Assembly (NCBI RefSeq): GCF_964194025.1
Contig: NC_134470.1
Location: 52,452,001-52,516,000 of the forward strand
From: Convolutriloba macropyga
Lineage: Eukaryota
Direction: 5' to 3'
Length of the DNA: 64,000 nt
The position numbers and the translations under genes were made by a program. Shown here piece after piece: positions 3,974-52,600 of this stretch. The stretch's first letter is position 1. Each line of letters starts with the position of its first letter. A model generated the notes under the pieces. It worked only from the letters and a program-made list of their open reading frames with translations, searched no databases and had not been told where the DNA came from.

Positions 3974-5320
3974 TTGTGTTCAACGTCCGTCCTGACTCTT
4001 GGAAAAACCAAAGAATTGAAAATTTTCATAAAAGTTTCACATATAATGTCAACCTATCCTCATTTTCAAAAACGACGCAAATTCAAATTTAGATTCTTCT
4101 TCCATAAAGCATGTTTGCTAAAATAAAAAAAAACAGAGCACTTATCAAATTATTTAAATCAATTTTTGTTATTGTTGTGTGCTGCCAAAACTATTGTTTT
4201 CGAACTAAATGCTCATTACAATAGGTTAAAGATTCCATTTTGTTTTAAGAGAAAATTTCAAGTGCATAAATTTTTTTTGACCTAACTGAGATATGTATAG
4301 AATCATTTTAATAATATATGAAGAGTGAAATGTCAGAGACAGAACAGTTTTTCCTCTTTTTTCAATAATTTTTTCACGAAAAGTGAATACCTAGTTTTTA
4401 TTTTAGAGAAAAAAATGACAAAGTCTCGTTAAGACTCTATTTACTTTTTCGAGTTTTATAACGTTGCTGCTCTTTTATCTCTCCGTAAAAGATATCGATC
4501 AGCCAAAATTGAACAAAAAGCAAGGCGCCCATAATTATTCTAACCAACAACTAAAATTGAAGGTTTAGAACAATCACCCGATGTTCTTGAATGTTTCAAG
4601 AATAGAGACCCTATTTCAATTCAGTTGATCTTAACAAGATAATGCTCAGTTGTCTTTTAGTTTATCTTCAAATATCTTTTATTTTAGTTTTTGCCAATGT
4701 ATCATACATGTATATGAATAAAGATTCAATATTGGAAAAACATGAGCTCTCGAAAGGGGTTACCGCCCCCATCTTAGTGGGGCCAGAACCTGATGCCACC
4801 AATTCCAGGGGTTATAATTTCATCAGTACAATTTTCTTTTTCTTTTTTTTTGGGTGGAAGGGTGGCATAATGAAAAAGAGCCTAAGAGGGAGGCTGCTGG
4901 TCACAATAGGCATTCTTACCATGATTTGTTGGTACCTCTCTGAGCCGACAGCTATCTCAAAGTGACTTCTGTTCACGTTACTCATCTCTATCAGCTCTTT
5001 GTACCTCTCAGCTATCAACTCCTCCACCGTTTGTTCTGGTTAACATATAAATTAGCGGTAAAATAGATTTCGGAAAATAATCTGGTTTTGCTATCAATGA
5101 CTCCTGGTCAAAATTGAACACTCGGTTGCTTATTTCCAGGAATCAAGGAATGGATCATATAGTTTTAAGGGAACTTTGATAAGTTTCATGAAATGCATAA
5201 TCTTGTTGTGAGCACTATACCTCATTTGTCAGTGATCCCTAGAGACACGAGGTATATTGACGTATATATTTTGTATATAACAGTCCACTTCTCAAACGGA
5301 CTTCTAAGCTTTGTACGAAG

Positions 5321-13501: not shown

Positions 13502-14690
13502 NNNNNNNNNNNNNNNNNNNNNNNNNNNNNNNNNNNNNNNNNNNNNNNNNNNNNNNNNNNNNNNNNNNNNNNNNNNNNNNNNNNNNNNNNNNNNNNNNNN
13601 NNNNNNNNNNNNNNNNNNNNNNNNNNNNNNNNNNNNNNNNNNNNNNNNNNNNNNNNNNNNNNNNNNNNNNNNNNNNNNNNNNNNNNNNNNNNNNNNNNNN
13701 NACTCCAAATTTTATCATGAAATGGCTAATAAGCGCCATGATGAGAACTCTGGTCATGGGAAAAATCATTATGAAATTTTCATGATTCAGTTCTGAATTA
13801 TTATGACACTCAGATCCGGGAAAACACCTTAATTTTGGTGAAGATTCTTTGAGTGTTCTTTTTCACAATGCTCTTGATCAATTTCTTTGGTTCACTGTGA
13901 GCTAATATTGTGTTTGTATTGTATTTTTTACAAGAATCTTGCAAGATAAGCATTTTTTGCAAGATTATGGCAGAATTTTGTAGTATCCATTTGGCCTCGA
14001 CTAAGGTTAGCTTTTTATGGGTTTTTGCCACTGAAAGCTCGACTTAGTCTCAGTTGCACAAAATCAGTTCGCTCCGATTCAAAAGAGCAGATTTTAATTT
14101 TTTTTGCCTGTTTGTTGAATCCGAGGAATTGTTTTTCCGATTTAGCACAGAGACAATTCTTTAAATGATTGGTTCATTTGAAAAGCAACTGGTTCCAATT
14201 AATAGAGCAGGCAAAATTAAAGACTAAGTTTGGTGTGAAGGCGATTTAACCCAATACCAAAATACTCAATGTTCGAGATGGCCAATTCCAAAATACCAAT
14301 TTCCAACTTTCTCTATCCAATTCCAGTTTTTTGTTAAACAGGAAAACTATCGGAGATGAAACTGACACGCCAAACAAAGACTCTAAAGTCAATCGAAAGG
14401 TTATAATTTTGTGCTATTTGCATTATTTGAAGGCCACCAAAAGCCTATAAAGAACCAAATCTGAGTAAAAGTACAAAAAACTCAAGAAGGTAAAATCTAG
14501 TTTTTTCACAATACAGCTCACGAGTAAACAGATAACTACACTTTTATGTGATAATTTAATAATTGATAATTTTATATGAGGGTTACAAAATGAAAGGCAT
14601 GTCCATAAACACTCTTAGGTACCCGCGTAGACAAGAGTGAATTCATTCAATAACATTTAGACGTTCTATGATCTAAACTTGGGCTTGTTC

Positions 14691-14807
14691 AGCAGTGGAT
14701 AAAACAAGGCTTCCAGCCACCAGCCAACTTGGTCCATTTTTCCTCCTCAAAACTCGGGAAATGAATCAAGTCGTCTGCTGACTAGAAGCCTTATTTTATC
14801 CACTACT
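14691..14807 (+). repeat. Left TIR of the Polinton (self-complementary hairpin)
   Basis: About 106/117 identical to the reverse complement of 27339-27455. Begins AGCAGTGGATAAAACAAGGCTTC and ends GAAGCCTTATTTTATCCACTACT. Confidence 0.95.
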
Positions 14808-15319
14808 ACAAAAACGAAAATCGGCCAAAAATAAGCCAAACCCTCATGTTTACACATACCATTAAAATAAAAAATGGCCAAAAATAAGGCAAACCCGCAT
14901 ACTCGCGCATACCATGCGCACCCGCATTGTTGCGCATAGTCTCCCTACTCAGAATAATGCGCAAGCATGCGAATATGCGCTTATCACTTAATTTTTTCGA
15001 GAATTTTATTATAATTATATTTTTGGCGTATAATTCTTTTAAAAATAGGGCTAGACATAAGGCTAGGGATAAGGATATGGATTAGGCTATAGATAAGGCT
15101 ATAGATAAAGCTAGAGATAAGGTTTGAGCTAAGACTTGAAATAAGGCTATGGATACAGCTAGAGATAAGGCTAGAGATAATACTATAGATAAGGCTATAG
15201 ATAAAGCTACTCTTCTATTAATTTATCTATATCTACACCTTTGGCTGTTAATTTTCAATATAATAGATAATATTTATAATACTCTGATTCTTCTTTTGGA
15301 TGAATACCCTTAGCTAGAT

Positions 15320-15952
15320 CTATATTCTTCTGAGATTTTGTATATGACTCCTTAACCCGCTAAAGCTGATAATCGAAGGACAATATTCGCACTTAACTTT
15401 AGTTGAATTGCGTTCTTTACATATTGACGTCTTTTTAACAAAACATGTTATTTGTTTTATAATTCCACATCTATTACAAATTTTATTTGTTATATCAAAT
15501 TCGACATTGGGACTCTCGCCATTGGCCCTACAATTGCTTTGCATATTAGAATCAGTGAAACTGCTTCGCAGATTAGAATTAGAATTAGAATCAGTGAAAC
15601 TGCTTTGCAGATTGAAATCAGAGTCAGAATTGGAAATAGAATTAGAATTAAACCCAGAATTAGAATAAGAATTAGGATCAGAATCAAAATTAGAAATAGA
15701 ACCAGAATCAGTGAAACTGCTTCGCAGATTAGAAAAAGAGCTAGAGCTGGATTTAAAGATAGAGCTAGAGCTAGATCACTTTGAAGCAGTACTTCTTATC
15801 TTAGAAGAAATTTCTGCCACAAAATTACCTCTTATTGATTGATTTCCACATGTACACTTAATAACTTTATCTTTATGTTCTATTTTATAATGAAAAGGTA
15901 AATTGTGTGGGGTGCCACATCCATAATTACAATCTAAGCATTTCATGTGCAT
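15320..15952 (-). pseudogene. Polinton zinc-finger protein with Ser/Asn-rich linker (one internal stop)
   Basis: ATG 15952 reads MHMKCLDCNYGCGTPHNLPFHYKIEH...KCTCG. After a TGA at 15778-15776 the same frame continues through an S/N/D-rich tract into ORF 15320-15544 (CNRC, CEYC...H). Confidence 0.6.
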
Positions 15953-16140
15953 TATTTATAAGGATTTAGATTATAATATATTAATAAACTCAAACATCTA
16001 ATCAAACTTATATATTTAAATTTATAATTATTTATTTTTCTATATTTATAATTATACTTATATTTATATTAAAAATTATTAATTTTTTTTTTATTTATAA
16101 TTATACTTATATTTATATTTAAAATTATTTATTTTTACAA

Positions 16141-17694
16141 TCAATTATAACTAGCCAGAATTCCAGTTAAACTTCTAGCATGATCTTTAGAGAAGGCAAA
16201 CTGAGCAAATATATCCATACCCAACTTATTAAGTGTATTATATTTATATCTTTTATCTATAATCTTTTCATTGCTGAATTCAGTTTCATCACTAATAAAA
16301 TTTATAATTCCTTCTCTAAATTTTTGATTCCTTTTATACAGATTATTTAAATTATCTCTACCCCTTTTGTTTAGAGCTTCAGTATCTTCATCTGTGTATT
16401 CATCTAGTTGGATTGATTTACTAGATAAACTATATTGTTCGATCTCTTGAAATGAAGGTGGTGATCCAAATCCATAGTTCAATAATGTACCTGCTCTATT
16501 TATCATATGACTTGCATGTGCTGACACATGTGCCGCAGTTCTTACTGCTGGATCGGATTTAATATAATTATACATCATGAAAAATTAAGCTATAATTCCA
16601 CTTAAGGCTGATATTGACTTCATACCATCCGCTTTAACTGTTCTTTAGTTAGAACATCATTCTGAATTTTAATATCCCTTGAAGCAAGAAATTTATTAAA
16701 ATAGAACGGATAGTTATCTGCATTAATAGTATTTCTATCTCTGGCATTAATCATAAGTGGTTTCGTATATGCTATAAGTTTATCTATCTCATCACTTTCT
16801 AATTTATCTTTTAAACTAAAAGCTTTCAATTCCATATGACCAACTCTCGATTCATATATCAAAGTATTATTTTCACCAATAATTTTAAAAGGTTTTTTTT
16901 TAATATTATACTTAACTATACCATAACGAAGTTCATTGGCCATTCCATCTGGGCAATTATAATAACTATTTTTTAACTCATGACTTATTTCATAAAATTC
17001 ATGTTCACAATTAAATGTTGCAATAAAATTTTTAAATAGATGTGCCCCATTATAAGTTGTTATATAAATAGAATCACAATTCATTCTGGACATATTATCT
17101 ATCTGAGCTGGTTTATGACACATCACAATCATTTGAATTTTATTATGTCTTCCTTCTGTAAAATAATATTTTATATTGGTACCAAACTCACTACCCACAT
17201 CATCAAGAAGAATTATACTAATTTGAAATTTTTGTATGTTGTTAATTGTAATCATATTTATATCACCCAATTCAAATTCATCATAGGGAACACCAGTCTC
17301 GGGATTTATCCAATCCCTTTCATCTTTACGTACTGTTATAATGTTTTGGTAATCTTGTTTCTGACCATGTTCTTGACCTTGATCTATATTGTTTTTGTCA
17401 ACGTGACCTTGCTCTATATTGTTTTTATCAACTTGATGGGTCCTCTCCTTTAACTCACCATTTAAGATTGACTTCAAATATTGTCTAACAAAATAAGTCT
17501 TCCCGGTACCAAAACCACCATAAATAATAGTATGTAATGGCGACTTTTCAAATTCAAATCTAAGTACTCTTCTATGTATAAATCCGCCAAAACTTTCTTC
17601 TATTTTTGCATATTTACTTGGTATTGAATCATATATTATATAACCAAAACACAATTATTAAATTAAATAAAAAAATTGCACTGACCGTCTCCAT
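16141..17694 (-). pseudogene. Second A32/FtsK-HerA-like P-loop ATPase with hydrophobic N-terminus and C-terminal extension (frameshifted)
   Basis: ORF 16620-17654 has Walker A GGFGTGKT, Walker B IILLDD and the EGRH motif followed by IQMIVMCH. ATG 17694 (METVSAIFLF) joins by a frameshift. A further frameshift and stop link it to ORF 16141-16578. Confidence 0.75.
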
Positions 17695-17710
17695 TTTTTA
17701 TAAAATAAAA

Positions 17711-18148
17711 ATGCTTATTCTAACTTTTGAAGAATTTAATAATGAATTTGGTATTAATAATGAACCAATGAGTAATATCAGAATAAAAGATATAGGAAAA
17801 GATATAAGTCTAACTCCAATTGAGATAGTAATGAGAGATGAGAAACCAGAAATGATTAATGAGAATAGCTTCAAAATTGTTGTAAATCTACATCCAACTG
17901 ATGGTACTCATTGGGTTTTAGTTATAAAAAGAGAAGATGACACCATCTATTACTTTGACAGTTTTGTTGTTGAGACCCCGCCATTATTCTTAAAAGAATA
18001 TAATGATCTGGGTTCCAATGAAAGAATACAAGAATACGATGAATCTTATTGTGGGGTTTATTGTTTATATATGATCTATCTTATTGATAATGGTTTTATA
18101 ATAAAGAGAGCTTTGGATATTCTAGTTAATCAAGTTAAATGTCCTTAA
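17711..18148 (+). CDS. Adenain/Ulp1-like cysteine (maturation) protease of the Polinton
   Basis: VVNL...GTHWV, YYFDSF and IQ...SYCGVYC give the His/Asp/Gln/Cys catalytic set; ATG 17711 preceded by TAAAATAAAA. Confidence 0.9.
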   Translation: MLILTFEEFNNEFGINNEPMSNIRIKDIGKDISLTPIEIVMRDEKPEMINENSFKIVVNLHPTDGTHWVLVIKREDDTIYYFDSFVVETPPLFLKEYNDLGSNERIQEYDESYCGVYCLYMIYLIDNGFIIKRALDILVNQVKCP

Positions 18149-18732
18149 GGATATAAAAAGTGTCTGTGTTTGAGTTGTAAAGTTAAAAGTAAACTTGAAG
18201 TTAATCAGGAACATGTTTCACAGATGATAATGATAATGCTAATGATAATCAGGGAATCTGCTTCGCAGATGTTAATGGTAATGGTAATGGTAATTATAGC
18301 GATAATGATAGTTATAATGATAATGGTAATGATAATTGTAACTATAATGGTAATCAGGGAACGCGCTTCGCAGATGATATTGATAATGATAACTATAATA
18401 ATAATTATAATGATAATGTTAATGGCAAACAAGAATTCCCTTTATCATCAGATGACGTAGCAACGGCGAAGCCGTTTCACGGATGGTCAGAGACCAATCA
18501 GCGAAGCTGGTTCACAGATCAGGGAACCTGCTTGGCTAGCCACTAGCAGAGCTCGTTCGCAGATGATAATGATAAATTATTTACTAGAACCAAACAAAGA
18601 GATAAAGCTTGTTCACAATGTGGATGTGATAATAGCTATGGAATTGTTGGTATGAGAAAGTCAGTGAACCATACTCAAAGAAGTAGTGTAAACAAATTAT
18701 TAATCGATGTTAATAGAAGTCTATAATCATGA

Positions 18733-19332
18733 TTAACTGACAGTAATATAACAGTCTATGCCCCATTCCCAGAAAATCTCAGATGTATAATATCTGGTCC
18801 TAGTGAATGTGGAAAGACAGTCTTATAAAAGAATCTATTCATACCCGGCGTACATTTTGATAGGTTACATATCATTGGTCCTACTGGCAGCCGATATAAT
18901 GATATCAGGGAAGCCGCAAAGGAGATCGTATTTATTGAAGACATAAAAGAATTACGCCTACCTGATAAACTACCGAAAGATATAAAGAAACTCATGATAT
19001 TTGATGATATTATAGCTAAGGAACCAATTTTTAATGAATACTTTTGTAGAGCTAGACATGAAAATTGTGATATGATATATCTTAAACAAAATATATTCTC
19101 AGCAGATAGACAGAATGTTAGAGAGAACTGTATTTTCTTTGAACAAACGGGCAAAGCCGTTACTGCTATATATTATGATCATTTTACTGGATCTCAACTT
19201 AGTTATAATGATTTTCGTAATATATGTGAAAAAGTATGGTCTAGTCCTTATAATTACATTGTCATTGATAAATCTAAAAATAGATTTGATTGCGGCAAAC
19301 TAAGAATTAATTGGGATTGGAGAGTTTTATAA
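18733..19332 (+). pseudogene. A32-like DNA packaging ATPase (internal stop)
   Basis: One frame reads PFPENLRCIISGPSECGKTVL*...LMIFDD...FCRARHENCDMIYLKQ...RENC...PYNYIVID: Walker A, Walker B, Arg finger and conserved Q. Confidence 0.88.
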
Positions 19333-19565
19333 TTAAGTATAAGTATTATTATGAGTATAAGTACGAGTCTAAATCTAAGTCTAAGTATAAATCTAAGTCT
19401 AAGTCTAATTATAAGTATAAGTCTAAGTATAAGTATAAGTCTTTATTTATGACTAAGTATAAGAGTAAGTCTATAACTAAGTATGAGTCTGAGTATAAGA
19501 GTAAGTCTAAGTCTAAGTTTAAGCCTATGAGTAAGTCTAAGTCTAAGTCTATGACTAAATCTATA
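19330..19565. repeat. Hexamer-period tract (AAGTCT/AAGTAT)n between convergent genes
   Basis: Direct inspection; explains the spurious KSKSKYK ORF. Confidence 0.85.
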
Positions 19566-20088
19566 TCAGATGCAAAGTAAAACTCAATGCATTCCCATTG
19601 AAGTCTATAGGTCTTCCATGCTCATCTTTAATATGAAATTCAATATACTCTATTCTATCCTTTGTTACATTTTGATATGAGATATTAGTTGGTATAATAT
19701 TTATCAGGTAACCTGGAAGTTCTGTTAGAGTAAAAGTATATAGTATGTGTGTGCAAAAAGCTGTAGGTATAGAATAAGGTAATCCTATACCTGTTAATGC
19801 AACTGATGTTGATGTAGCAGTTGTTGCTATAGATGATAATACTATTTCTGTTATCACAGCTACGGTAATATAATTCTTATATCTACTTGACTTCTTATTA
19901 TAATTATTAGTTTTAGTTTCATAATAATTTTTAATATCTTTTATAATGTTAATGTTGTTATTAAAAATATTTTTAGCTTGAGTCTTTACATTTATCTGTT
20001 TCTCAGCCGCTTCGCGGATCAATCTTTCTGATACAGATGATAGATCTGGATATAATAATCTCACACTCGGTGCTGTTGGTTGACTCAT
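19561..20088 (-). CDS. Chimeric ORF: N-terminal Polinton membrane protein (PTAP, LYPDL) fused to a minor capsid (penton) C-terminus
   Basis: MSQPTAPSVRLLYPDL, a basic helical region and a hydrophobic segment, then ILYTF...PGYLI...P.NI.Y...IEYIEFHIKDEHGRPIDFNG..LSFTLHL, which matches my recollection of Polinton penton C-termini. Confidence 0.65.
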   Translation of the reverse strand: MSQPTAPSVRLLYPDLSSVSERLIREAAEKQINVKTQAKNIFNNNINIIKDIKNYYETKTNNYNKKSSRYKNYITVAVITEIVLSSIATTATSTSVALTGIGLPYSIPTAFCTHILYTFTLTELPGYLINIIPTNISYQNVTKDRIEYIEFHIKDEHGRPIDFNGNALSFTLHLI

Positions 20089-20836
20089 TTTCAGTAGTAA
20101 AATAACTCTCAATATCCTTCATTATATCTTCTTGATTAAAATCATAATGCATCTCTAGTCTTGCTTGTTCTTTGTTTTCTAGTAGCTTACTTTCTAGTAA
20201 TATAGCTATTATATATTTTATAACTATCTTCATTAATAATATATGGTTTTGTTTTAAATCTCTCCATCTATCAACACATGCATCGCCCAATTGAATATTA
20301 GTATTTGACTGATTAAACTTATTGTTATCGAACTCCATTTTTAATTCATTATATTTAGAAATGGTATCAGCGGAAACTTTGTTGCCAAAATGAACAATTT
20401 TAGTTTCAATTTCAGTCAACTTATTGGCTAATGTGGATATATTAGATGAGTTAAGAGAAACTAGTTCAACTGTATCACCATCAATCCACACACTATCTCC
20501 ATTGGTTGTGGATGATGGCAAACCAATAATGTTTGCATTTAATTGATCGGTTGTAACTTCTTCAAATTCACCTTTTCTTAATTCACTTATATTTTCACTT
20601 AAATTATTTAATTTATTATTAGATGATAATAGGTTATTATCAAAACACTCTTTATTAACCACATCTTTTTGATCTATGGGAGTGTGTACATTTGTAATTT
20701 TATAAGTATCTTTCATGTCAATATTATCATTATCTTCTAGGAATAAACAATGAGCCTTAATTAGTGTTAAGTTGTTCATTGATGTTGATGTTGATGTTGA
20801 TTGATGCTTAGCCTGATTGAATCTATTTCTTGTCAT
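20003..20836 (-). CDS. Polinton hypothetical protein, possibly fibre-like
   Basis: 277-aa ORF. KITNVHTPIDQKDVVNKECFD resembles the ITNLxxPxxxxDAATKxYVD motif of phage/viral fibre proteins; heptad-rich segments follow. Confidence 0.5.
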   Translation of the reverse strand: MTRNRFNQAKHQSTSTSTSMNNLTLIKAHCLFLEDNDNIDMKDTYKITNVHTPIDQKDVVNKECFDNNLLSSNNKLNNLSENISELRKGEFEEVTTDQLNANIIGLPSSTTNGDSVWIDGDTVELVSLNSSNISTLANKLTEIETKIVHFGNKVSADTISKYNELKMEFDNNKFNQSNTNIQLGDACVDRWRDLKQNHILLMKIVIKYIIAILLESKLLENKEQARLEMHYDFNQEDIMKDIESYFTTENESTNSTECEIIISRSIICIRKIDPRSG

Positions 20837-21706
20837 CTTTGTATTTGTTTACAGTAAGAATTATACCTAATGTTTCCAAAACCTTATTATTAGATTCAAA
20901 ATCAAACTCGGATTTTAATATTTCATGTTCATAATATTTACCTTCTATTATCTCTCCATTGACGTCTTCTATTCTGTATGTTGGTGGTTGTGTTTTTAAA
21001 ACTTCATTAACTTTAAACAGTTCTCTATTCCAATTACAAGTGTATCCTTTAGAGAAAATGTTACGTTTATCTGCATTTCTAACATAATCACCAACTTTAA
21101 GTTTAGGTTTAATATTCTTAAAATTGAATGAGTATTTAAGTTATCGGGAATATTAGAAACATCAGCGGGTGTCATATCAATAGTAGAGTGAATGTTATTG
21201 TTATAAGTTATTACTGCATCATTTAATATATTTATACAATTACCATCACCATTGATGAACAGTGGTTTATTGATTATGTGTAGTAGCGTTCTAATAAATC
21301 TCTGTTTAAATACAGCCTTTAAATCACTATAAGTAGAATATAATTCAGTTTCATATTCTTTAAGTGAAGATTTAAATGTTTTATTGTAAAACTAACTACC
21401 TCGATCTACCCATAACTTTTCTGGTTTTCGTCCTTCTGATAGGATTGTTTTAGAGCCATTAGTTATAGATAAACCAGATTTTTTCTTCAATGGAATAACC
21501 CATGCATAATTTGTGAATATATCTATAACTGTTAATTTAAATTTATAAGTATTATTGTATTTACTTAGAGATGATTTGTCTATCAAATCAGCTGACCATG
21601 TTTCATCTTTATATAATGGTATTATTCTTTCTCTTCTAAACTTTGTGATTTGGGGACTAAATACTTCTTTAGCTAGTAGTTGTTGTTGTTGTTGTTTTTC
21701 CACCAA
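20823..21706 (-). pseudogene. Retroviral-like (c-int) integrase of the Polinton, disrupted
   Basis: TWSADLID, LTVIDIFTNYAW.IPLK, LWVDRGS*FYN, YNNNIHSTIDMTP, KVGDYVR, FSKGYT.NW..E.F. Contains a stop and a frameshift, and the third catalytic position reads Q (KAVFKQRF). Confidence 0.92.
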
Positions 21707-21709
21707 TAA

Positions 21710-22580
21710 CTACTTACCATAATTAAAAACAAAATTGTCGAGTTGTTCTTGATTAATAATATTCATAGATAATAGTTGTTTAGATATATTTAACATTTCA
21801 TCATATAATCCATCATAACCAGCTTTTGTTTCTAGTATAGGTAATTCTAGTCTTTCTACTAAATTATTTGGGTCTGTTTTGTAGCTATGATTGTCATGAT
21901 TGTTGAGTTTATCTTTAAATAAACCATTACCATATACACCATCTTTTCCCATTAGTATGCGTTTTTTTGTTCTTTATCTACTACTTTTCTTATCACCTTT
22001 TCTAAAATCATATCTCATATCTAGTAAACACCTTTTAATTTTGTTTTCTTTGATATCACCATCAAATAATGCATGTGGGTTAGTAAGAAAGTTAGTAAAT
22101 CTGTCTGAAAACTCATATATATTATCCTTTACTAAAAATGCACCCTGCTCTAGAGTTATATTAACACCATTCATTTAATATCTCCTAGTAGGTAAATCTA
22201 CGAGTTCTAATTTTAATTGAGGAATAGTTTGCGCCCCCATTTTATGAAGAATCTTGGTTATCCCTGTATCAACACAAACTGGTGCTATTTCTTGAGTTTT
22301 CTCTATGGTTTCCTTTGACAAATCGGGCTTCATTAATGTCTCGTTTCTAGTTTGCTCTATCATCTTAGTTTGTTTAGCTAACTCTTGATTTTGCCAAGCT
22401 ATTGCTTTAAATGTTCGTTCACCTAATGCTAGATTCTGTTCATTAATTGCATTTAGTGTTTTAGTTAGAGGATCAAATAACTCCATAATATTCTTGTTGT
22501 CTTTATTTTTCTTTTAATCTATTTCTTATGTTTAGTTTTTCTAGTTTATTTAATTCTACGAATTTATCTAGCTCAGTCAT
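21710..22580 (-). pseudogene. Conserved Polinton protein upstream of the integrase (fragmented)
   Basis: ATG 22580; fragments 22175-22486, 21974-22174 and 21710-21952 are collinear. The C-terminal DPNNLVERLEL...KAG...EMLNI..LL...II resembles a motif I recall from Polinton ORFs adjacent to the integrase. Confidence 0.6.
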
Positions 22581-22697
22581 TTTTTATTTATAAAGAAAAA
22601 ATAATTATTTTTTAACGATAATCATACTAACTGCTAAGTAGTTTTGTATTCATAGTCATATTCATGTTTATATTTATATTCATATTTTTATTTAAAT

Positions 22698-25600
22698 TCA
22701 CAGATCATTATATAATCTAATACTGGCTTCAATTAGCTTTCTATCATCATTAGTGGGTAGTTCTAGAATATTATCTATCAGCGCCTCTTTACTTACATCT
22801 AACCCTAATTTTATTAATAGCTCTAAAGTAGTATTATTAGTCTTATTTACTAAATCTCTTTTGTATAGATATAGATATTCATCATGAGGATAGCTTTTAA
22901 AATTATTTACATAGAATCTTTTATCATCAAATGTGTTTAGACAAATCTTTCTGGTTTTTGTTGTTGTCATGTTATCACTAGCTTTTTGTATTCTACTTTC
23001 TTGTACAACCCTTTCTTTATTATACATTACTGCGTTATAATACTCCTCATGTTTAGCATTGTTACAATTCTTTATTCTTTTTTCTTCAGTTTTATTTTGG
23101 GAATCTCTGAAGCTACATGACTTTAGTGATAGGGCTATAAACTCTTCTATTATTCTACTTCCCAAATCATGTTTGAGTTTGCCGGGGACTTTATTATTAG
23201 TTTTGATTGGTTTTTCGAGATTTCTTAAATCCATATGCTCATTGTCAACATTACCATCGCCAAAACTTAATACAAAGCTGTCAGTATCCATATAATGGAG
23301 TTGTAGATATTTGAGGGATGGTTGACGAATTTTATAGAATACATCATACAAGTGTAAATTACTTAATTCTAATATAGTAACACCTACATATACTGGAGAA
23401 TCATATTCTTTTTTTTCTTGATATATTCAATTTGGCTATGATCCTTATATCTAGTTATATTCTTAAATGTTGGTTTACTTATACTTTTCATTATCTTTTC
23501 TTCATTGTGTAAGAACTTACTTTGAAGGAAGTGTAGAGGATTCATGCACATTCTTCCATATAGCGAGTTGTTCAATAAATTCCTTATATCCTTTTCCGCT
23601 TCATTTTTAGCTGCTGCTCTTTTATTAGAATTGTTTTGAATATAGTCTCTACATATGTAATCTGGTTTAAATTAAATTACTCTATGAATTTTAATTACTG
23701 ATACACCCATCTAAACATAGAACTTTAACATCCTATAATGAACCATATATTCTGTTTTGTTGTTTTGATCTAAGATTAATTTCTCTGATCCTGCTCTACC
23801 TGTCTCTCTTTCTCTGTAGCCTTAATCATTATCATTTATCTTTCTTTTATTTGGCATTAATGCCAGTTGTTCTATTCTATCTTTACAACTATTAGTATAA
23901 TTAATATCACAAACTATACTGTAAACATTATCACTATCAACTGGAGTATTTAGTATAGAGACTAGAGATGTGTCACAGTACTTGAAATCTTCATCAGATA
24001 ACTTTTGCATCATTGCATAACCAAATAGGTTGTTTGCGTCTCTGTACCATATCTGCGAAGCAGGTTCCCTGATGGTCCTGTTTTTACTATTAGCATTAGC
24101 ATTAGCATTAACATCAGCATTAGCATTAACATTATCATTAGCATTAAAATTAGCATTAGTATTTATATATCTATCACCCATTATGCCACATATACCACCT
24201 CTCTTTGCTCCAACAAAATCATCTAAGATTTGTTTATCTTGTATTGTATCTAATGTAACACCACTTGACATTAACCAACAATCAAAACTATAACCCGGTA
24301 GACTAACGTAATGTAGTGGGTTGAGTTCGTATTCTTTCATACTTAATTTGACATTCATTCATGCAGTAGTCTGATATTTCCACATCTTTCGGTAAATACT
24401 CTATAGTTAGATCTTTACCAGTTTTATGACTGTTGTCTTTATTAAAGATATCAACTTCTTCTTGTGTTGGTAGTTTATTAGATAGTGAGGATTTGAAGTC
24501 TTCTATGTTTAGATAACCTATAAGATTAATATAGGAGTCTAAACCAAAGGATTCATATGGATATAAAGTATTAGTTTTACAATATAACTTTGCCATTCGA
24601 TCTAGAGACATAGCTAAGAAGTTATAGCTATCTAAGAATTTAAAACAATCAAAACTAAACATCTTAGACTTACCAGCAGCTAGTGGTACGTTATCCACTT
24701 TTTTATCATTATTCTGTTTAAAAATTCACTATACAGTAGATTGAAATCATAACCGGAGCCATAATGGACTATTACAGGAATGAAGTTTTGTTGTTTGTAC
24801 CTTAGATTACACATTCCACATACTGGTCCTCTATATCTACCAGTTTCATGACAGTGATCTCTTACTTTATTAATACAAGGTTTATTACAAAAATGACAAG
24901 TGTTATTGGTTTCATGATACAATTCATTTTCTTTATTAAATATCATCTTTTCATTATGTTTAAAGTTATTCTCTGTTTCTATTTCTAATAGATCAGTAGC
25001 AAATCTTTTGATGCAGTCAAAACCAACGTAGTGCTTGAAGTTACTTTGCCAGATTTAACCCACAGATATTGGAATATGTTCAGCTATTACATATTTGCAG
25101 TAATTAGATTAGACGTTAACAATGCAACATTCTATATCCGCAGTTATATTTTTTATATTCTGACGCTTATGTTCATTTATAAAAGTAATCTTTTTTTCTT
25201 AGGACAAATAATCTCTGGTTTGAAAGAGTGGCTACATATCTGATTGTCATAATTAATTTGAGAGTTAGACCAATATGTACATCTATCACAATAATAATAT
25301 TTATTGTTATTTTTATTCGGACGATCTAACAGGGTTTCTATGTTTTTAATTAGAGCACAGTGTTCCACTCCGGCTTTTTCACAAATTAATAATCTATCAT
25401 CTTTTCTATCTTTATCAAAGTCATCTGCTGGTTTAAGTAATTCTACTTTACCATCACCACAGGGCGTGTATATCCAAATAATAATATTCTACAATTTTTG
25501 TGTTCTTAATATATAGCCGAAGTCATCTTCATGTTGTTGTCTTGGTACAATTAGTTTATTCACATATTTACTTTCACGTGTTGCATGGTCCATGGCGGAA

Positions 25601-26495
25601 TGTAGCCAAGCAGTATTAGTTAGTTGTAAGCAATTGTATTTGGAATTGCGTATATTTAATATTGATTTAGAATTTTGAGATCGGGGGTAAATCTATATAA
25701 CTACCAATAGATGCTTTGGTTGGTTCAATACTTATCTGAATACTTCATAAACCAAGAAACTCAAGGTCATAGCCATAGCCTTCATATAATTCTTTTTCAA
25801 AGTTAAGTCACTGCTTGAAGTGACCATATTCATATATTGCGTTATTATTGATATAGTCGGTGATGAAGAATATTTTAGTAGTTTTAACTTCATCTTTGGT
25901 TCTCTTCATATAATCACACTCGGCTGTGATCTTATATTCAAAACTCTTAACTCTTCTAAACTGGTAACAGCTTTTAATTTCATCTAAAGAATTATTAACA
26001 GCTTCATCTATATCTTCGATGTAATTTCCTGCTTTATCAGTATTATAAAATTCTTTCATGTTCTGGCTAGAGTTTATATCGAAGTGTTCTGTGTTTTCTA
26101 GATACTTGCGATTATGGCTATATGAGTGAGTAGTTAGGGTGATTTTTTATTGAAATTCTTCATGACATTCTTTACATTCATACTTAATTCTAAGGTAGAT
26201 GCTGTCTTCGGTTTTAGTTATAGGCTTAGTTGCAGGATTAGCTTTACGTTTAATAGTATCTTTGATGTTATCTTTAGGTTTACTCTCAGTTTTAGGTATA
26301 CTCTCAGTTTGGGGCTTAGGTCTGAGATAATACAATTCTTCCTCTGAGTCATACACTCTCTCTGGCTTCATCTTCCATTTCCTTTCTCGCTCTGTTTAAG
26401 TGCTCATCACTTAAATTGTGTTTGATAAATTGTTTCCTTGCTTCATAGACCAAATCACAAATATAACAAAAGTTTACGCTTTCTACTTTAGACAT
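22698..26495 (-). pseudogene. Protein-primed family B DNA polymerase (pPolB) with N-terminal zinc fingers and EndoVII/HNH-like module; many stops and frameshifts
   Basis: Collinear fragments: CYIC..H, CKEC..H, ILNIRN..YNC, YYCDRC, ADIEC (ExoI), CHFC..VRDHCHETGRYRGPVCGMCN, HYGSGYDF (ExoII), FLDSYNFL, YPYE, RGGIC, DANNLFGYAM (motif A), NNSLYG (B), YMDTDSF (C), FDDKR. Confidence 0.95.
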
Positions 26496-26544
26496 CTTTA
26501 TTTTTAGGGACAGAAATTCATTTTTGAAAATATACAAAATAAAA

Positions 26545-26865
26545 ATGTCTAAATCAGTAAAATGTGATAATTGTAAAGATAAATCTTGGAGAGGGTGTTG
26601 TAATAAATGTTTAAATAGTTCATTTGAGTGTTATATCTGTAAAGGTTACTTTAAGAATAGAGATTATATTAATCATATGAATATACATAATAATGATCCA
26701 AATCTATATATAACTTGTATCATGTGTAATGTATATCAACATATCAGCGGATTTAGATTTAAAAATTTTAAGTGTAGATTATGTATTTATCTACATAGAT
26801 ATAGAAATAAACAAACCAGAGATAGATTCAGGGAAAATATCGAAAAATTTAACATAAAGGTTTAG
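26545..26865 (+). CDS. Small Cys-rich/zinc-finger protein of the Polinton
   Basis: MSKSVKCDNC..CCNKC..CYICKGYFKNRDYINHMNIH (C2H2)..CIMC..CRLC; ATG preceded by AAAATAAAA; divergent from pPolB. Confidence 0.65.
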   Translation: MSKSVKCDNCKDKSWRGCCNKCLNSSFECYICKGYFKNRDYINHMNIHNNDPNLYITCIMCNVYQHISGFRFKNFKCRLCIYLHRYRNKQTRDRFRENIEKFNIKV

Positions 26866-27338
26866 AGTTAAGCTGGTTTTTTGTGCAGATTATCCATGAA
26901 GTGGCTTCATCAATTTTCGCAAGTTGGTTTTACGTGCTTGTTACACGAACTCAATAGTTATACTGAAAAACACTAATCACTGTGTTTCCACGAATCTCAG
27001 TGTTTTTGATTGTATACCCATCACAGTGTGTCCATATACAGTCTCACAGCAGGGATCATCCTTTTAAGAACTTTGAATTTGTTTTTTTTTATCTCACCTA
27101 GTTTCATAGTAGTTCATCAAATTCGGGGGACCTTCACTGGAGTCAGTGAGGAAGGAACCCCAAACCTTCCGTTTGCTAAAGCAACTTAACTAGACTCGAT
27201 GATTTAACCACTACGCCAAGTGAGACATGAAATGATTTATTTTAATTGTATAAGAATGGGAATATAGTGGTCAAAACAAAATGGAAATAAAGTAATGTGT
27301 ATACAGCCACCTAATTTTCATTTTTTAATTATACTTTT

Positions 27339-27455
27339 AGTAGTGGATAAAACAAGGCTTCTAGTGACCAGACGACTTGGTTCATTTCCCAAGTTTTTAC
27401 GAGGGAAAATAGACCAGGTTGGCTGGTGGCTGGAAGCCTTGTTTTATCCACTACT
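27339..27455 (-). repeat. Right TIR of the Polinton (self-complementary hairpin)
   Basis: AGTAGTGGATAAAACAAGGCTTC ... GAAGCCTTGTTTTATCCACTACT (perfect 23-bp outer stem), followed by the TSD TTGTTC. Confidence 0.95.
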
Positions 27456-28979
27456 TTGTTCATCTTTAGAAATGCAGAAATTAAGCACCACTCATTATCC
27501 AGACTTTCAAGATCTCATTTAGGTGCAAAGATTGATGTCTAGTTTTCCGGCAAACATCTGGAAATATATACGCGAATAGCAAAATTTTTCAAAAACTGAC
27601 TCTAATTGTTACACTTAGGTTCACTTGATTAGTCAAAATTTATGAAAGTGCATTTTCTGACAAATAAATTTTTGTGGTCTTCTGATTTCTTTTTGTGGTT
27701 CTAAGACACAAGAGCAGAAACTAAAACCCCATGTGAAAGTTCAATCAAACTGTTTTAGATAATTTTCTTAGTAATAGATTTTTAAATGATGTACTCAGCG
27801 TATTTTCAACGTATTTAATGCGCGCATGTAAACGTAATCGTACGTTTTAAATTTTAAAGAAGACATCGACCTGGATTGATGTTTTAACACCGCTAACCAG
27901 TGTGCCCATAGAGGGAAGGACTCCAATTTAGACTAATTTTATTATAAATATTTAGGAATTATGTTGACGTGAAAACTTAAAATTGTAAAGACAAACGATA
28001 GGGAAAGGCTAATTTTTTAAAAGCTGAAAATTGTAAAGACAAACGATATATGGATTTTCTATCTGGGATGAAGCTCCGCTCAAAATGAGCCAGACTGATG
28101 ATTTTTCTTCCCAATTTCAAACGAATAGTTTTTCTCTTACCTGTATATATGAATCAAAAGATTCTTGTTCTTCACAATTCACCAAATAAGAAGTGACGCA
28201 AATACTTTGCAACTGATCGAATAAAAAGCACACCACTGGTCACTGTACTCGATTTAAAAATTAGCATGCATGCACAAAGAGCTTTTACAGTTTTCAAATC
28301 TCGTAAGAGCTTCACTTTCATATCAGCTTAGAAAGCTTTACAAATTCTCTTCAAAACTTAACTGCGGCTAATTAAGATTCACGCACAATGGTAGCTCTCC
28401 AATTTCAGATTTACATGAGAATTCATGTGCTGATGTTCTTCTGTACAATGGTCAACCGTGGTGGCATTTTCCAAAATTTAATAGTATTTTAATGAACTTA
28501 ATTTAATCAGCACAAGACACAGAGGTCAATTAGAGGGAACAATTAGGAAGCAGAAATTGCAATGAGTCTGAGCCACTATTTTGATTTGACATCAGTTACT
28601 CCCAATTTTTAAGGCTTCATTTCGGCAAGAAAAGCACAACCTGACATATTAGATTCTACATAAAACTAATAACTCCTTTGACGTTGAATTCTCTCCCGTG
28701 GGTGCGTTGCTTCGGACTCTATTACAAAACAAATTGCATCCGTTTTTACAGTTTGGAAGCCGGGAAAAAGCATAAGCATAAGCAATCATTAAGCTCTAAA
28801 GTTTTCATTGGATTTAGACGATTTGGGAGTAGTTGTGCAACAAGTTGCTTCTATTCTTATAAATATTTATCACGGCAATAAGATCTGTTAAGAGGTCCAT
28901 CTCTGTAAAGAGACCTCTGCAAAGATAACAGTATTAGTTGTCTAGACATATGTACATTAGATTATCCTGTTACATAAAC

Positions 28980-49600: not shown

Positions 49601-52600
49601 CGCGGAATGTCAACTGTTATGCATACGTCTACATCAAAAAGTATATTGTAGTCAGCATCAAAACTCATCATATGCGGAGCAAAAACAAGATTTGAAAGTT
49701 ATAAAAATTGACAGCAAACACATTATGAATTGAGATTTGGACAGAAAATATAAGATGATTAAACACAATAACAATCAATCTTCAATCATGATTCCACTTG
49801 CTTGAAGAACGAGACACCGGCTCCTTGAGCTTGCGACGCAGAGACAGAAAAAAGACCTACGAAAAAGCGCAAGTAAAGGTTTCTCCTGATATACGTAATA
49901 ACGTAGGAACAATATTCCATTTTCTCAGTCTTAACATGAATGGCTTTCGCCCGATAAGGACCACCTCCTCCAGTACAGACAAAAAAAGGATAGAGCTTTG
50001 TCTTCTCGACTCAAATGAATCACAGATGCATTTATATAAAAGAATTTCAATCAAGATAAAAGAATTTCAATCAAGCGACAACAGCCAAAAGACCCCTAGC
50101 TGTAATATTTAATTGACGTCAAAGGTTATGATAAATCTATGAGTGAAGTATTCCCCTATCAAAGTCTGAAAACAGGGCTCAACTTCAACATCGCCGCAAA
50201 CTTCCTTGAGTACGTTGGCATATGAGCCGTGGATATTATGCACGAAGACGGGTAGTTTGTTTCACAAAATAGAGCCTGGTCATCATTGAACTTGTCTCGC
50301 GTGCGCAGGTGGAGTAATTTTACAGCTCACCCACTGTGAAATTCTTTCCTAAACTCCGCAGTGCTTAAACTAAACATGGATCGTTTAATGGGGAAAGAAC
50401 GTTTAGCCTACATAATGTCATCGCTCTCTTTGGAAGATCTAGAGAATGCTTTTCACATTGATCAAATCTCTATAGCTAACTTTTTTACAGTCCTGCATCT
50501 CCTTCTATTTTCAAATTTTTGCGAGAATATGCTGAAGCATGTAAGCTGACTTCTTGACGTTAGACTTATACAATCGCTCACAAAGTTGCGTAGATACTAA
50601 AATATTAGGACAATCTTTGTTAATTAAAAAGAACATCATTCTTAAACATTTTGAGCAGATAAATTGAACATCAGTGGCAATGTAGCAGAAAATAGCCGCA
50701 ATAGCTTTGTAGATCTGCAGGCTCAAAAAGAAAGTAAAAGAAACACCAAAGAAACTTTTTTAAAATTAAATGCCGAGATGTTATATTCTGATAAAGAATC
50801 TGTTCAACTTAATTGCTGCATCTATTAGCTGCCATCAAATACCCTTCAATTAGAATGCCACGAACTCACTTGACGTCAACTCTTTGAACTAAGAAAAAAA
50901 AAGTCAATTTGAGAGTGATGAGGTCATTTTTGAGAGGTAAGCTGTGTGACCAAAAATAAATCACGGGAATGAACAAAAACACTAGCTCCACATACAGTGA
51001 AAATGACGTTCCGCACGCAATTCAGTTGCAATTGTATTAAAGAAACAACAAAAAGCAGATTGGAAGTGATAGTGACGTCGTATGGTCGTAACAAAAATCA
51101 CGACGACGAAACAAAAAAAATATCGCCGGAAGACTCAGGAATCGACTCGTAGAAAAAAACATAGCAAGCAGATTGCCGAAAAACAGCCACCTTTGACGGG
51201 CTAGACGAACATCGGGATTGAAAAAGATAAAGAAAAAAGGAGATAAAAATTGACAAAATTTTTATCAAAAATTGTTCTAATTCAGTGTTGGGTTTCAGTT
51301 AGATTTTAAGCCTATACTTACTTCAGCTTCTAAACTGAAGGGTATATAGCTTAATACTAATATCAGTTAGCCATCGCTCTAATGAACTTTGATAACCTAA
51401 TGCACTATGAATTAATGACCGGACTTTATCGATTTATCCCGTTTCTTTTGATTTTGCTCTTCTGACATTGACCGTATTCACTACATAGCGTAATCCAATG
51501 CGTTGAAGCATTGAGCCAGGTTAGTCAGAAGTCAAATGTGAAAATCGTGACTTAAGTTAAACGAAAAACGTGATCAAAAGGTGAAGCGAATTTTAAAAAG
51601 GAGAGCGCCTAAATAATAGCCGTGAGAGGCTGATGGTGGCTATTAAACGAAGATAAAAACAAAATCTTGGCAAAATTTCATGAGTCCAAAAACAATATTC
51701 CAAAACAGAATGTGTAATGTACTCAATTTCTGTTCATTAAAACAGGTTTGTTATGTTCGAAAACCATTAAAACAGCATATGTTCGAAAACAAACCGAGAT
51801 CATTGCTGGAAAACAGCTGCCCGTGATTCCTATACACGCGATTCGGATTGAAAGGACGAAAATGACGTAAAAGATTTTTGTGCGAAAAAAATTTAAAGTA
51901 TTAATTATGTTGATGTTTTCCATAATTAAGAAATTCTGTTTTTAATGAGGGGATACAGAAGCAAGTATCAACACGAATAAGCATTATAGATGGTAACTGA
52001 GATTTCTAAGATCAAAGTTCAAGTACCGGGCATCTAAAACGGGGTTTCACGGATTTAAACCGTTTCTATTTTTGATTTGGATTTTGCTAAAAACTCAGCT
52101 TATTCTAGATTGTTTTTCAGGCCAACTGCTGCTTAAAATCACTGAACAGAATGATATAGCCTACAGAAGTCAAAAAGATTAACACAAAATTTTGAACAGG
52201 CTGTGAACTAATGTAAAGCGAATCAAATTATTCGATGAGGTGATGGAGATACAGTCCTGCATCTCCATCCATTCTCAAATTTTTGCGAGAATACGCTGAA
52301 GCATGAAAGCTGACTTCTTGACGTTAGACTTATACAATCGCTCAAAAAGTTGCATAGATATTAAAAGATTAGGAAAATCTTTTTTAAAATAAAAAGAACA
52401 TCTTTCTTAAGCATTTTGAGCAGATAATTTGAACATCAGTGGCAATGTAGCAGAAAATAGCCGCAATAGCTTTGTAGATCTGCAGGCTCGAAAAGAAAGT
52501 AAAAAACACAGCTCACCTCTTAAAATGACCTCATCACTCTCAAATTGACTTTTTGTCTCTTAGTTCAAAGAGTTAAGGTCAAGTGAGTTCGTAGCATTCT

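Follow-up and report, generated by a model that had tools for sequence, protein, structure and literature searches.

The terminal inverted repeats (TIRs) of the Polinton found in the window, the 64,000-nt stretch of DNA analysed here, are themselves fold-back hairpins, and this observation, first made in an earlier note on the sequence, is real and family-wide. The hairpins are imperfect, conserved and held in one orientation, and we tentatively favour a reading, to which we give slightly less than an even chance, in which they serve protein-primed replication as duplex origins formed by the end itself and do not act as primers. This reading draws on a design common to three subfamilies, on TIRs that are short relative to those of a hairpin-free fourth, on the fixed orientation and on the terminal protein (TP) and OTU folds of the polymerase.

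The element in the window

The element is a decayed Polinton that has lost its capsid gene and is flanked by the target-site duplication (TSD) TTGTTC (Table 1). Its proposed identity is borne out by a protein-primed polymerase B (pPolB), an RVE integrase, an A32 ATPase and a protease, together with the AG...CT termini and 6-bp TSD by which Polintons/Mavericks are recognized. The double-jelly-roll capsid of the group is present in the family, as the stretch deleted from the window copy encodes a double-jelly-roll protein in the sister copy L063 (PF21738 E 1.3e-18). The A32 ATPase is clearer in sister copy L065 (E 2.4e-8), and L111 has a natural frame of 1304 aa that also matches PF03175 (E 1.1e-17). 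Pfam gave no match to the broken integrase pieces alone, their assignment being made through the rve protein of L226. Among 21 frames of the window and 11 further proteins, no Rep/HUH nickase was matched in Pfam, several of the ORFs having no family.

Table 1. Features of the element and its flanks, in window coordinates
Feature	Position	Strand	Remarks
Left TSD, TTGTTC	14685..14690	+	identical to 27456-27461
Left TIR, 117-nt imperfect fold-back	14691..14807	.	3' end on - strand
Left TIR arms	outer ~14691-14739; inner ~14759-14807
A32-like packaging ATPase	16620..17654	-	PF04665 E 7.5e-5, at curated cut-off
Ulp1/adenain-like maturation protease	17582..18148	+	PF02902 E 0.008, below cut-off; position agrees with sister copies
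Internal deletion junction, ~3 kb lost including capsid-gene region	19746..19756	.	window skips from L063 4930 to 7967
RVE integrase, split over three frames	20823..21709	-	pieces match L226 rve: E 7e-17, 2e-10, 7e-19
Protein-primed polymerase B, broken	22698..26630	-	PF03175, PF02945 matches; terminal-protein, vOTU, endonuclease VII/HNH regions
Right TIR, 117-nt imperfect fold-back	27339..27455	.	3' end on + strand
Right TSD, TTGTTC	27456..27461	+	equals left TSD

The stems are as they had been described: the right one is perfect over 23 bp, pair 24 being the first mismatch, and the left one is paired at 21 of 23 positions, its terminus reading AGCAGT instead of AGTAGT through a private change. 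Identity between the two TIRs ends just past the inner ACTACT. Folded as single-stranded DNA, the right TIR reaches -41.9 kcal/mol on the + strand and -33.6 on the - strand, and the left TIR -34.9 on the - strand and -22.0 on the + strand; z-scores run from -4.9 to -12.7, with 0 of 200 shuffles folding equally well for each of the four strands. The differences between the arms are common to both window ends and to subfamily A, and when read on the strand bearing the 3' end they are G-T, G-G or G-A.

Hairpin ends across the family

Hairpins of 117, 124 and 74 nt terminate the copies of subfamilies A, B and D (at least 40, 717 and 46 ends, respectively), which differ in both hairpin sequence and interior, and fold z-scores across them range from -4.9 to -14.7. 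The units pair up 12.8-23 kb apart, flanking Polinton genes, and in 31 of 34 pairs the TSDs differ by at most one mismatch, 27 being exact. The TIRs measure 121-154 bp in 14 of 14 A/B/D pairs, whereas subfamily C has ordinary TIRs of about 570 bp that do not fold back (569-572 bp and no inner ACTACT in all three C pairs measured) and spreads nonetheless (24 ends). Contigs from four public runs of two studies carry the TIR with many different flanks. The viral and metagenome contigs scanned yielded no close relatives; a scan for distant ones gave 31 IMG/VR loci, three of which have TIRs of ~277-1086 bp at contig ends that do not fold back at the terminus (z -0.6, +1.3 and -0.55), although these ends may be incomplete and absence is not implied. 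The ends of subfamily D bear extra inner ACTACT blocks that resemble relics of repeated end rewriting.

Other family copies retain the inner arm, and none of 110 units examined stands alone with its own TSD, which speaks against the alternative that the unit is an independent MITE; nor did these 110 units support the suggestion that the inner site serves as an integration end. A single orientation was read by eye in 93 of 93 untargeted A/B ends and found in 30 of 30 D ends. A genome-wide search for inverted ends, using a pattern with a sensitivity of 48/55, returned 19 matches of which one, at an end of L099, was truly inverted. A single inverted end among at least 717 subfamily-B ends, all in integrated copies, does not support flip/flop of the parvovirus or poxvirus style.

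Compensatory changes, which the note had proposed to look for, are seen in the genomic copies, where the hairpin is a conserved family trait. Shared variants within the terminal 23 bp have a matching change on the other arm, while private variants and variants farther into the stem are unmatched, among them a pair 34 variant present in 10 of 40 rows. Changes on both sides are confined to pairs 7, 17 and 20-23; no more than six pairs vary, inherited changes enter the covariation cells many times over, and 52 of 500 shuffles reached as many two-sided pairs. Private changes remain uncompensated (35:1 in A, 24:1 in B), which implies that template switching after integration is rare. Two of 28 elements have a left and a right end of different type, each matched to itself. 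In most elements all four arms are of one type, and in L033 and L034 an identical unmatched stem sits at the left and the right end; exchange between the ends therefore takes place as well, and not every round calls for a perfect stem. Arm conversions, of which L089 offers an example, run in both directions (one exact match each way), and conversion to perfect pairing is seen at four ends, in L040 and in one further case, yet interior mismatches persist.

As anticipated, the strand with the 3' end makes a flush fold, and it is the better-folding strand at 134 of 136 ends (104/106 A/B and 30/30 D), a bias that may reflect a C-rich binding motif together with shared ancestry. L098 has a 385-bp inverted copy of its body beyond the hairpin (93.6% identity). 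The mirror image of this is found in L005, where ~180 bp of flank unlike the element is copied inward, so that chromosomal strand-switching accounts for such relics too. L098 was considered as a replication-dimer junction and set aside as specific evidence, since the copy stops after 385 bp and L005 mirrors it.

The protein-primed polymerase

Domain limits in pPolB were taken from a structure model of an unbroken subfamily B sister copy, in which residues 50-165 match LF/PAD and residues 176-293 match OTU, with Z under 8 for both: the putative TP fold aligns to 4IR1 with Z 6.8 (rmsd 3.1, 91 aligned) and the OTU fold to 4BOP with Z 7.5 (rmsd 3.5, 103 aligned). At E<=0.001 Foldseek returned nothing, the rows seen being weak Y-family and OTU ones. 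A TP-primed pPolB (PMC11161782) is characterized by an LF/PAD-like TP in which a Ser or Tyr separates helix 2 from the last strand, and by a vOTU with Cys and His; in the model Tyr148 falls between H132-145 and E150-164, and the linker position holds a hydroxyl residue in 77 of 79 aligned rows. Natural copies have the linker Tyr in 29 of 31 cases, the Cys in 28 of 31 and the His in 27 of 30, and all three persist in the window copy. The modelled pPolB thus appears to retain TP and vOTU domains with a linker Tyr and catalytic Cys and His; in most distant relatives the linking residue is Ser, whereas here it is predicted to be Tyr. With these domains apparently intact, the suggestion that self-priming had replaced protein priming finds no support, and together with the fixed orientation and the lack of solo units among the 110 they argue against pure self-priming. 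The polymerase also contains an HNH domain (PF02945 E 6.6e-8; structural match to Hpy99I, Z 4.6). This endonuclease VII domain was rejected as the cause of the hairpin ends because non-hairpin subfamily C carries it too.

Possible roles of the hairpins: origins, primers or signals

If the hairpin is a duplex origin, as we favour, the retained domains suggest that TP-fused pPolB would start at the outer AGTAGT end and displace one full strand, whose 3' 74-124 nt are predicted to fold back so that the last 18-27 bp become a perfect duplex with the exact sequence of a normal end. A new TP-pPolB could start on this local origin and read across the hairpin, so that the end would be fully extended, keep its orientation and need no nick, and the integrase would insert the extended form with the 6-bp TSD that is observed. 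The hairpin would stand in for a long left-right panhandle, the TIR being reduced, as seen, to barely more than the hairpin; selection and occasional arm-to-arm copying could explain why the terminal stem alone stays matched, and any extension from the flush 3'-OH would be incidental. Counting against this reading, the evidence comes from integrated copies, with no replication intermediate or free end seen, the flush 3'-OH is an ideal DNA primer too, and the inverted copy in L098, the modest fold Z-scores, left-right exchange, the shuffle result, the other possible sources of the strand bias and the number of C pairs measured, three, all weigh on the same side.

A rather unlikely alternative, to our minds, is that TP primes the first strand and the 3' hairpin of the displaced strand primes the second, leaving a closed end or dimer bridge that is reopened one-sidedly, perhaps by the pPolB HNH or the integrase, with one orientation surviving. 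It gains from the flush 3'-OH lying on the better-folding strand, from the HNH domain within pPolB and from the likeness of L098 to a fold-back extension, and the left end of MVM is resolved one-sidedly. For protist virophages and PLVs an equivalent model has been put forward (bioRxiv 10.64898/2026.07.28.741278), but ordinary terminal resolution, as described in PMC11575299, yields flip and flop independently, as opposed to 1 in ~700 here; the HNH also occurs in subfamily C and in distant Polintons, and strand-switching as in L005 explains L098 too. The fuller cycle, in which the one-sided cut of the palindromic bridge falls to the polymerase HNH/endonuclease VII, is less probable again; we know of no virus in which it has been demonstrated, and if true it would make these elements a living bridge from adenovirus-type ends to those of parvovirus/poxvirus type. 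It is improbable that the hairpin works as a structural signal unrelated to priming, acting in packaging or virion maturation, 3'-end protection or integrase loading: interior mismatches do endure despite conversions to perfect pairing, and those of vaccinia telomeres act in maturation and not in DNA synthesis according to PMC8956199, but such a role by itself leaves unexplained both TIR shrinkage in A, B and D against the 570 bp of C and perfect pairing over exactly the terminal 18-27 bp. Least probable in our estimate is a functionless by-product, an old terminal fold-back duplication kept matched by quasi-palindrome template switching. The two-way arm conversions, the extra ACTACT blocks of D and the hairpin-free spread of C agree with this, but template switching ought to erode interior mismatches and is rare after integration, and it predicts neither the one orientation and flush boundary nor the separate perfect stem of D with its own terminal sequence.

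Polintons/Mavericks (Polintoviricetes) as covered in PMC11161782 and bioRxiv 10.1101/2023.08.22.554363 share with the present family a pPolB with TP, vOTU and HNH-type insert, as well as the RVE integrase, A32 ATPase, protease, double-jelly-roll capsid (in sister copies), AG...CT ends and 6-bp TSD; the difference is a TIR that is here barely more than one self-complementary unit, and the Polinton passages of those two sources do not mention terminal hairpins. Endogenous virophages and PLVs of Halocafeteria seosinensis, for which terminal palindromes and hairpin priming have been described (bioRxiv 10.64898/2026.07.28.741278), are alike in having the palindrome at the TIR extremity adjoining the TSD and an RVE integrase. 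As far as that account goes, however, their palindromes (52 nt in the example) are borne on TIRs with mean lengths of 485-808 bp and accompany mostly non-pPolB replication genes, whereas here palindromes of 74-124 nt occupy almost all of the TIR beside a TP-vOTU pPolB that appears intact; its section 7 reports neither covariation nor fixed orientation. The novelty claimed earlier is accordingly reduced to the pPolB-bearing variant, which is new. AAV/parvovirus ITRs and poxvirus telomeres, as treated in parts of PMC11575299 and PMC8956199, resemble these ends in their ~120-nt imperfect terminal fold-back with conserved mismatches, but the present family has no flip/flop mixture, no Rep/HUH gene among the scanned ORFs, an inner arm flush with the TIR edge and, it seems, protein-priming domains. 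In the PRD1/adenovirus panhandle, as outlined in PMC11886824, the displaced strand is likewise proposed to regenerate a duplex origin on which TP can prime, restoring end homology, but there two genome ends pair, whereas here a partner for each 3' end is available in the end itself, within ~60 nt.

To our knowledge, nobody has yet demonstrated how Polintons copy their second strand and maintain their ends. In this genome, hundreds of hairpin-ended copies coexist with a close relative that has long, ordinary TIRs and shares the polymerase architecture, so that the choice between panhandle and fold-back becomes testable with short natural ends. The family is also relevant to the way in which protein-primed ends could have become the hairpin ends of other DNA viruses.

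Hairpin ends of the window element and its relatives

Folded as single-stranded DNA, each of the four TIR strands of the window Polinton forms a single long hairpin (z -4.9 to -12.7) that none of 200 shuffles equals. The fold-back TIRs described in the earlier note are confirmed, as are its stem counts (23/23 on the right, 21/23 on the left), while its interpretation of them is only partly supported. AGCAGT at the left end is a private change. Left-right identity stops just past the inner ACTACT, making the TIR essentially the 117-nt unit. The element encodes an A32 ATPase, a broken protein-primed polymerase B (pPolB) carrying an endonuclease VII domain, and an integrase in three pieces, each matching an rve protein; the protease match is weak. 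It spans only 12.8 kb because about 3 kb including capsid genes was deleted near 19750, whereas sister copies are mostly 15-18 kb. A sister of the second ATPase-like frame shows a weak helicase match.

Features of the window and of related loci (L-numbers: retrieved host copies or ends; L226: viral contig)
Feature	Position	Strand	Remarks
Polinton	14691-27455		bounded by TTGTTC on either side (TSD)
Second ATPase-like Polinton frame	18829-19332	+	no Pfam match at E 0.01
Predicted priming residue	~25700	-
Three inverted arms	50758-52871		173 nt, 93-94%; two just 4 nt apart; unrelated to Polinton
Diverged copy of outer arm and loop	L027, 1430-1617		70 nt; directly precedes full hairpin
Inverted duplication	L098, G000:C1612:34398-35289		outward copy of 385 bp of element body, from exact hairpin edge
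Element with one normal, one inverted end	L115/L099, G000:C3689:32547-49993		flanked by CATGCA TSD
Internal imperfect hairpin	L226 (IMGVR_UViG_3300020002_000020), 4657-4840		184 nt, z -15

Copies were searched in the 1.18-Gb host genome. The window type, subfamily A, gave 355 first-look candidates, and all 40 places scored match over 114-117 nt. A stem-pattern search (38 sites) revealed subfamily B, which has a different interior, a 124-nt hairpin unit and 717 exact matches to its arm (none in the control). A 51%-identical polymerase, used as query, revealed subfamilies C and D. Subfamily D (at least 46 ends) carries a 74-nt hairpin whose stem is particular to it and which folds at z -5.4 to -10.3. 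Subfamily C (at least 24 ends) is young, with unbroken polymerases and TIRs of 569-572 bp; its terminal folding is weak (z only -0.8 to -2.5), and the inner ACTACT is absent from 600 bp in all three pairs measured. TIRs of A, B and D measure 121-154 bp (14 pairs).

A TSD with at most one mismatch joins 31 of 34 A/B pairs tested, and none of 110 hairpin units stands solo with a TSD of its own; the unit is therefore not a MITE, and integration through the inner site is undetected, contrary to the suggestion that the inner AGTAGT could serve as an alternative integration end. Subfamily D is mixed, its polymerase being C-like (79-82%) and its inner flank B-like. Its ends (L175-L204) continue past the 74-nt hairpin with another two or three ACTACT blocks and with B-type inner-arm and flank pieces, as if ends had been serially replaced.

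Arm covariation and orientation

Covariation was scored in 99 of the 110 units, excluding four targeted-search finds, one duplicate and six set aside for their partner status or for ends that were damaged or shifted. Within the first 24 bp, rare changes are mostly uncompensated (uncompensated to compensated, 35:1 in A and 24:1 in B) and shared variants mostly matched on both arms (matched to unmatched, 7:2 and 92:16). Compensated cells in B number 93, against a permutation mean of 28.6 and a maximum of 48 in 2000. A second test took 52 gap-free B ends, 40 of them distinct: the share of paired cells is 97.0%, slid controls reaching 49.8% at most, and 54 cells are changed on both sides against 18.2 +/- 3.0 expected, cell counts that relatedness inflates. 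Only six pairs vary in B (7, 17, 20-23), and 52 of 500 shuffles attain that many pairs with changes on both sides; the pair at position 7 is found on three different backgrounds. Deeper stem variants are uncompensated (pair 34, 10/40; pair 46, 5/40). Among 28 elements compared end to end, two have ends of different type, each self-matched, one has an identical unmatched stem at both ends, and one (L118) is a mosaic.

The 3'-end strand is the better fold in 104/106 A/B ends and 30/30 D ends, although these 134 ends are not independent tests because they share ancestry. Stem mismatches have C on the 5' strand, so that on the 3' strand they read G-T, as the earlier note had it, or else G-G or G-A. 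Each of the 93 untargeted A/B ends, inspected by eye, has the same arm outermost, and so do 30 D ends. Inverted ends were sought across the genome, with 19 matches: 13 ordinary ends, four converted inner arms, one inverted duplication (L098) and one true inverted end (L099) with intact TSD. Since the pattern detects 48/55 B ends and only 9/29 A ends, the resulting limit, about 1 in 600-700, applies to B. A mixture of flip and flop orientations, which the earlier note proposed to test for, is not seen among these integrated copies; AAV rolling-hairpin replication, by contrast, yields the two independently (PMC11575299). The L099 end could pre-date integration or reflect later inversion between arms. 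At another locus, L005, about 180 bp of outside flank is copied inward from the exact hairpin edge; L145/L146, which lack a TSD and share an inverted outside flank, are probably an inverted segmental duplication.

Protein priming, precedents and replication

Residues 105-600 of a natural unbroken B polymerase were modelled with AlphaFold (82-row alignment, pLDDT 84, pTM 0.55), and the model gave middling matches to LF/PAD domains (50-165; 4IR1, Z 6.8), OTU proteases (176-293; 4BOP, Z 7.5) and Hpy99I (429-485; Z 4.6). Krupovic et al. (PMC11161782, in part) define the terminal protein (TP) and vOTU domains by the first two folds. The linker column is Ser, Tyr or Thr in 77/79 rows, the predicted priming residue being Tyr throughout the clade (13 rows) and Ser in 62 distant relatives. 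Among natural copies, the window included (31 matched of 41 stretches), Tyr is kept in 29/31, Cys in 28/31 and His in 27/30. With these residues and the modelled folds retained, protein priming shows no visible loss, which speaks against its replacement by hairpin self-priming.

The full-text literature searched yielded one direct precedent, bioRxiv 10.64898/2026.07.28.741278, where Halocafeteria virophages and one PLV subtype have terminal palindromes beside TSDs and a hairpin-priming model; earlier notice in animal Polintons, for instance in Repbase or Dfam, may exist. Those elements are mostly non-pPolB, whereas pPolB with TP/vOTU folds is found here. Internal palindromes also occur within the TIRs of some casposons (PMC4046053), and the term-matched text of Krupovic 2024 (PMC11161782), Jeong 2023 (bioRxiv 10.1101/2023.08.22.554363), PMC11296320 and PMC12747079 makes no mention of a Polinton terminal hairpin. 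None was found among 31 IMG/VR viral loci, whose contig ends may be incomplete. In L226, a distant Polinton, the internal hairpin has the integrase side on one flank and the start of pPolB on the other, and its edges carry ACTACT and AGTAGT in the reverse of the order in the window's unit. This hairpin could represent either an inserted element or a junction of ends, with no further copies beyond its own contig.

Any model must account for ends that are extended and face one way, for short TIRs in which only the outermost 18-27 bp form a perfect stem, and for retention of the TP. Snap-back priming, the reading closest to the Halocafeteria model, would require a one-sided nick to escape flip/flop, and we consider it unlikely. 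A TP-bound polymerase disfavours DNA primers, as work on phi29 indicates. That the hairpin is a packaging or protective signal, by comparison with vaccinia (PMC8956199, in part), seems more doubtful still, and a functionless by-product is the least probable of these readings. From the architecture, conservation, covariation pattern, orientation, TSDs and domains observed, we infer each replication step of a further model: the displaced strand would fold back locally and rebuild a duplex origin, with no nick. This would be a local form of the panhandle proposed, without direct evidence, for PRD1 and adenovirus (passages of PMC11886824). Fold-back rebuilding of the origin would account for all the features listed above and is our tentative preference, at slightly under an even chance, for how these Polintons may replicate.
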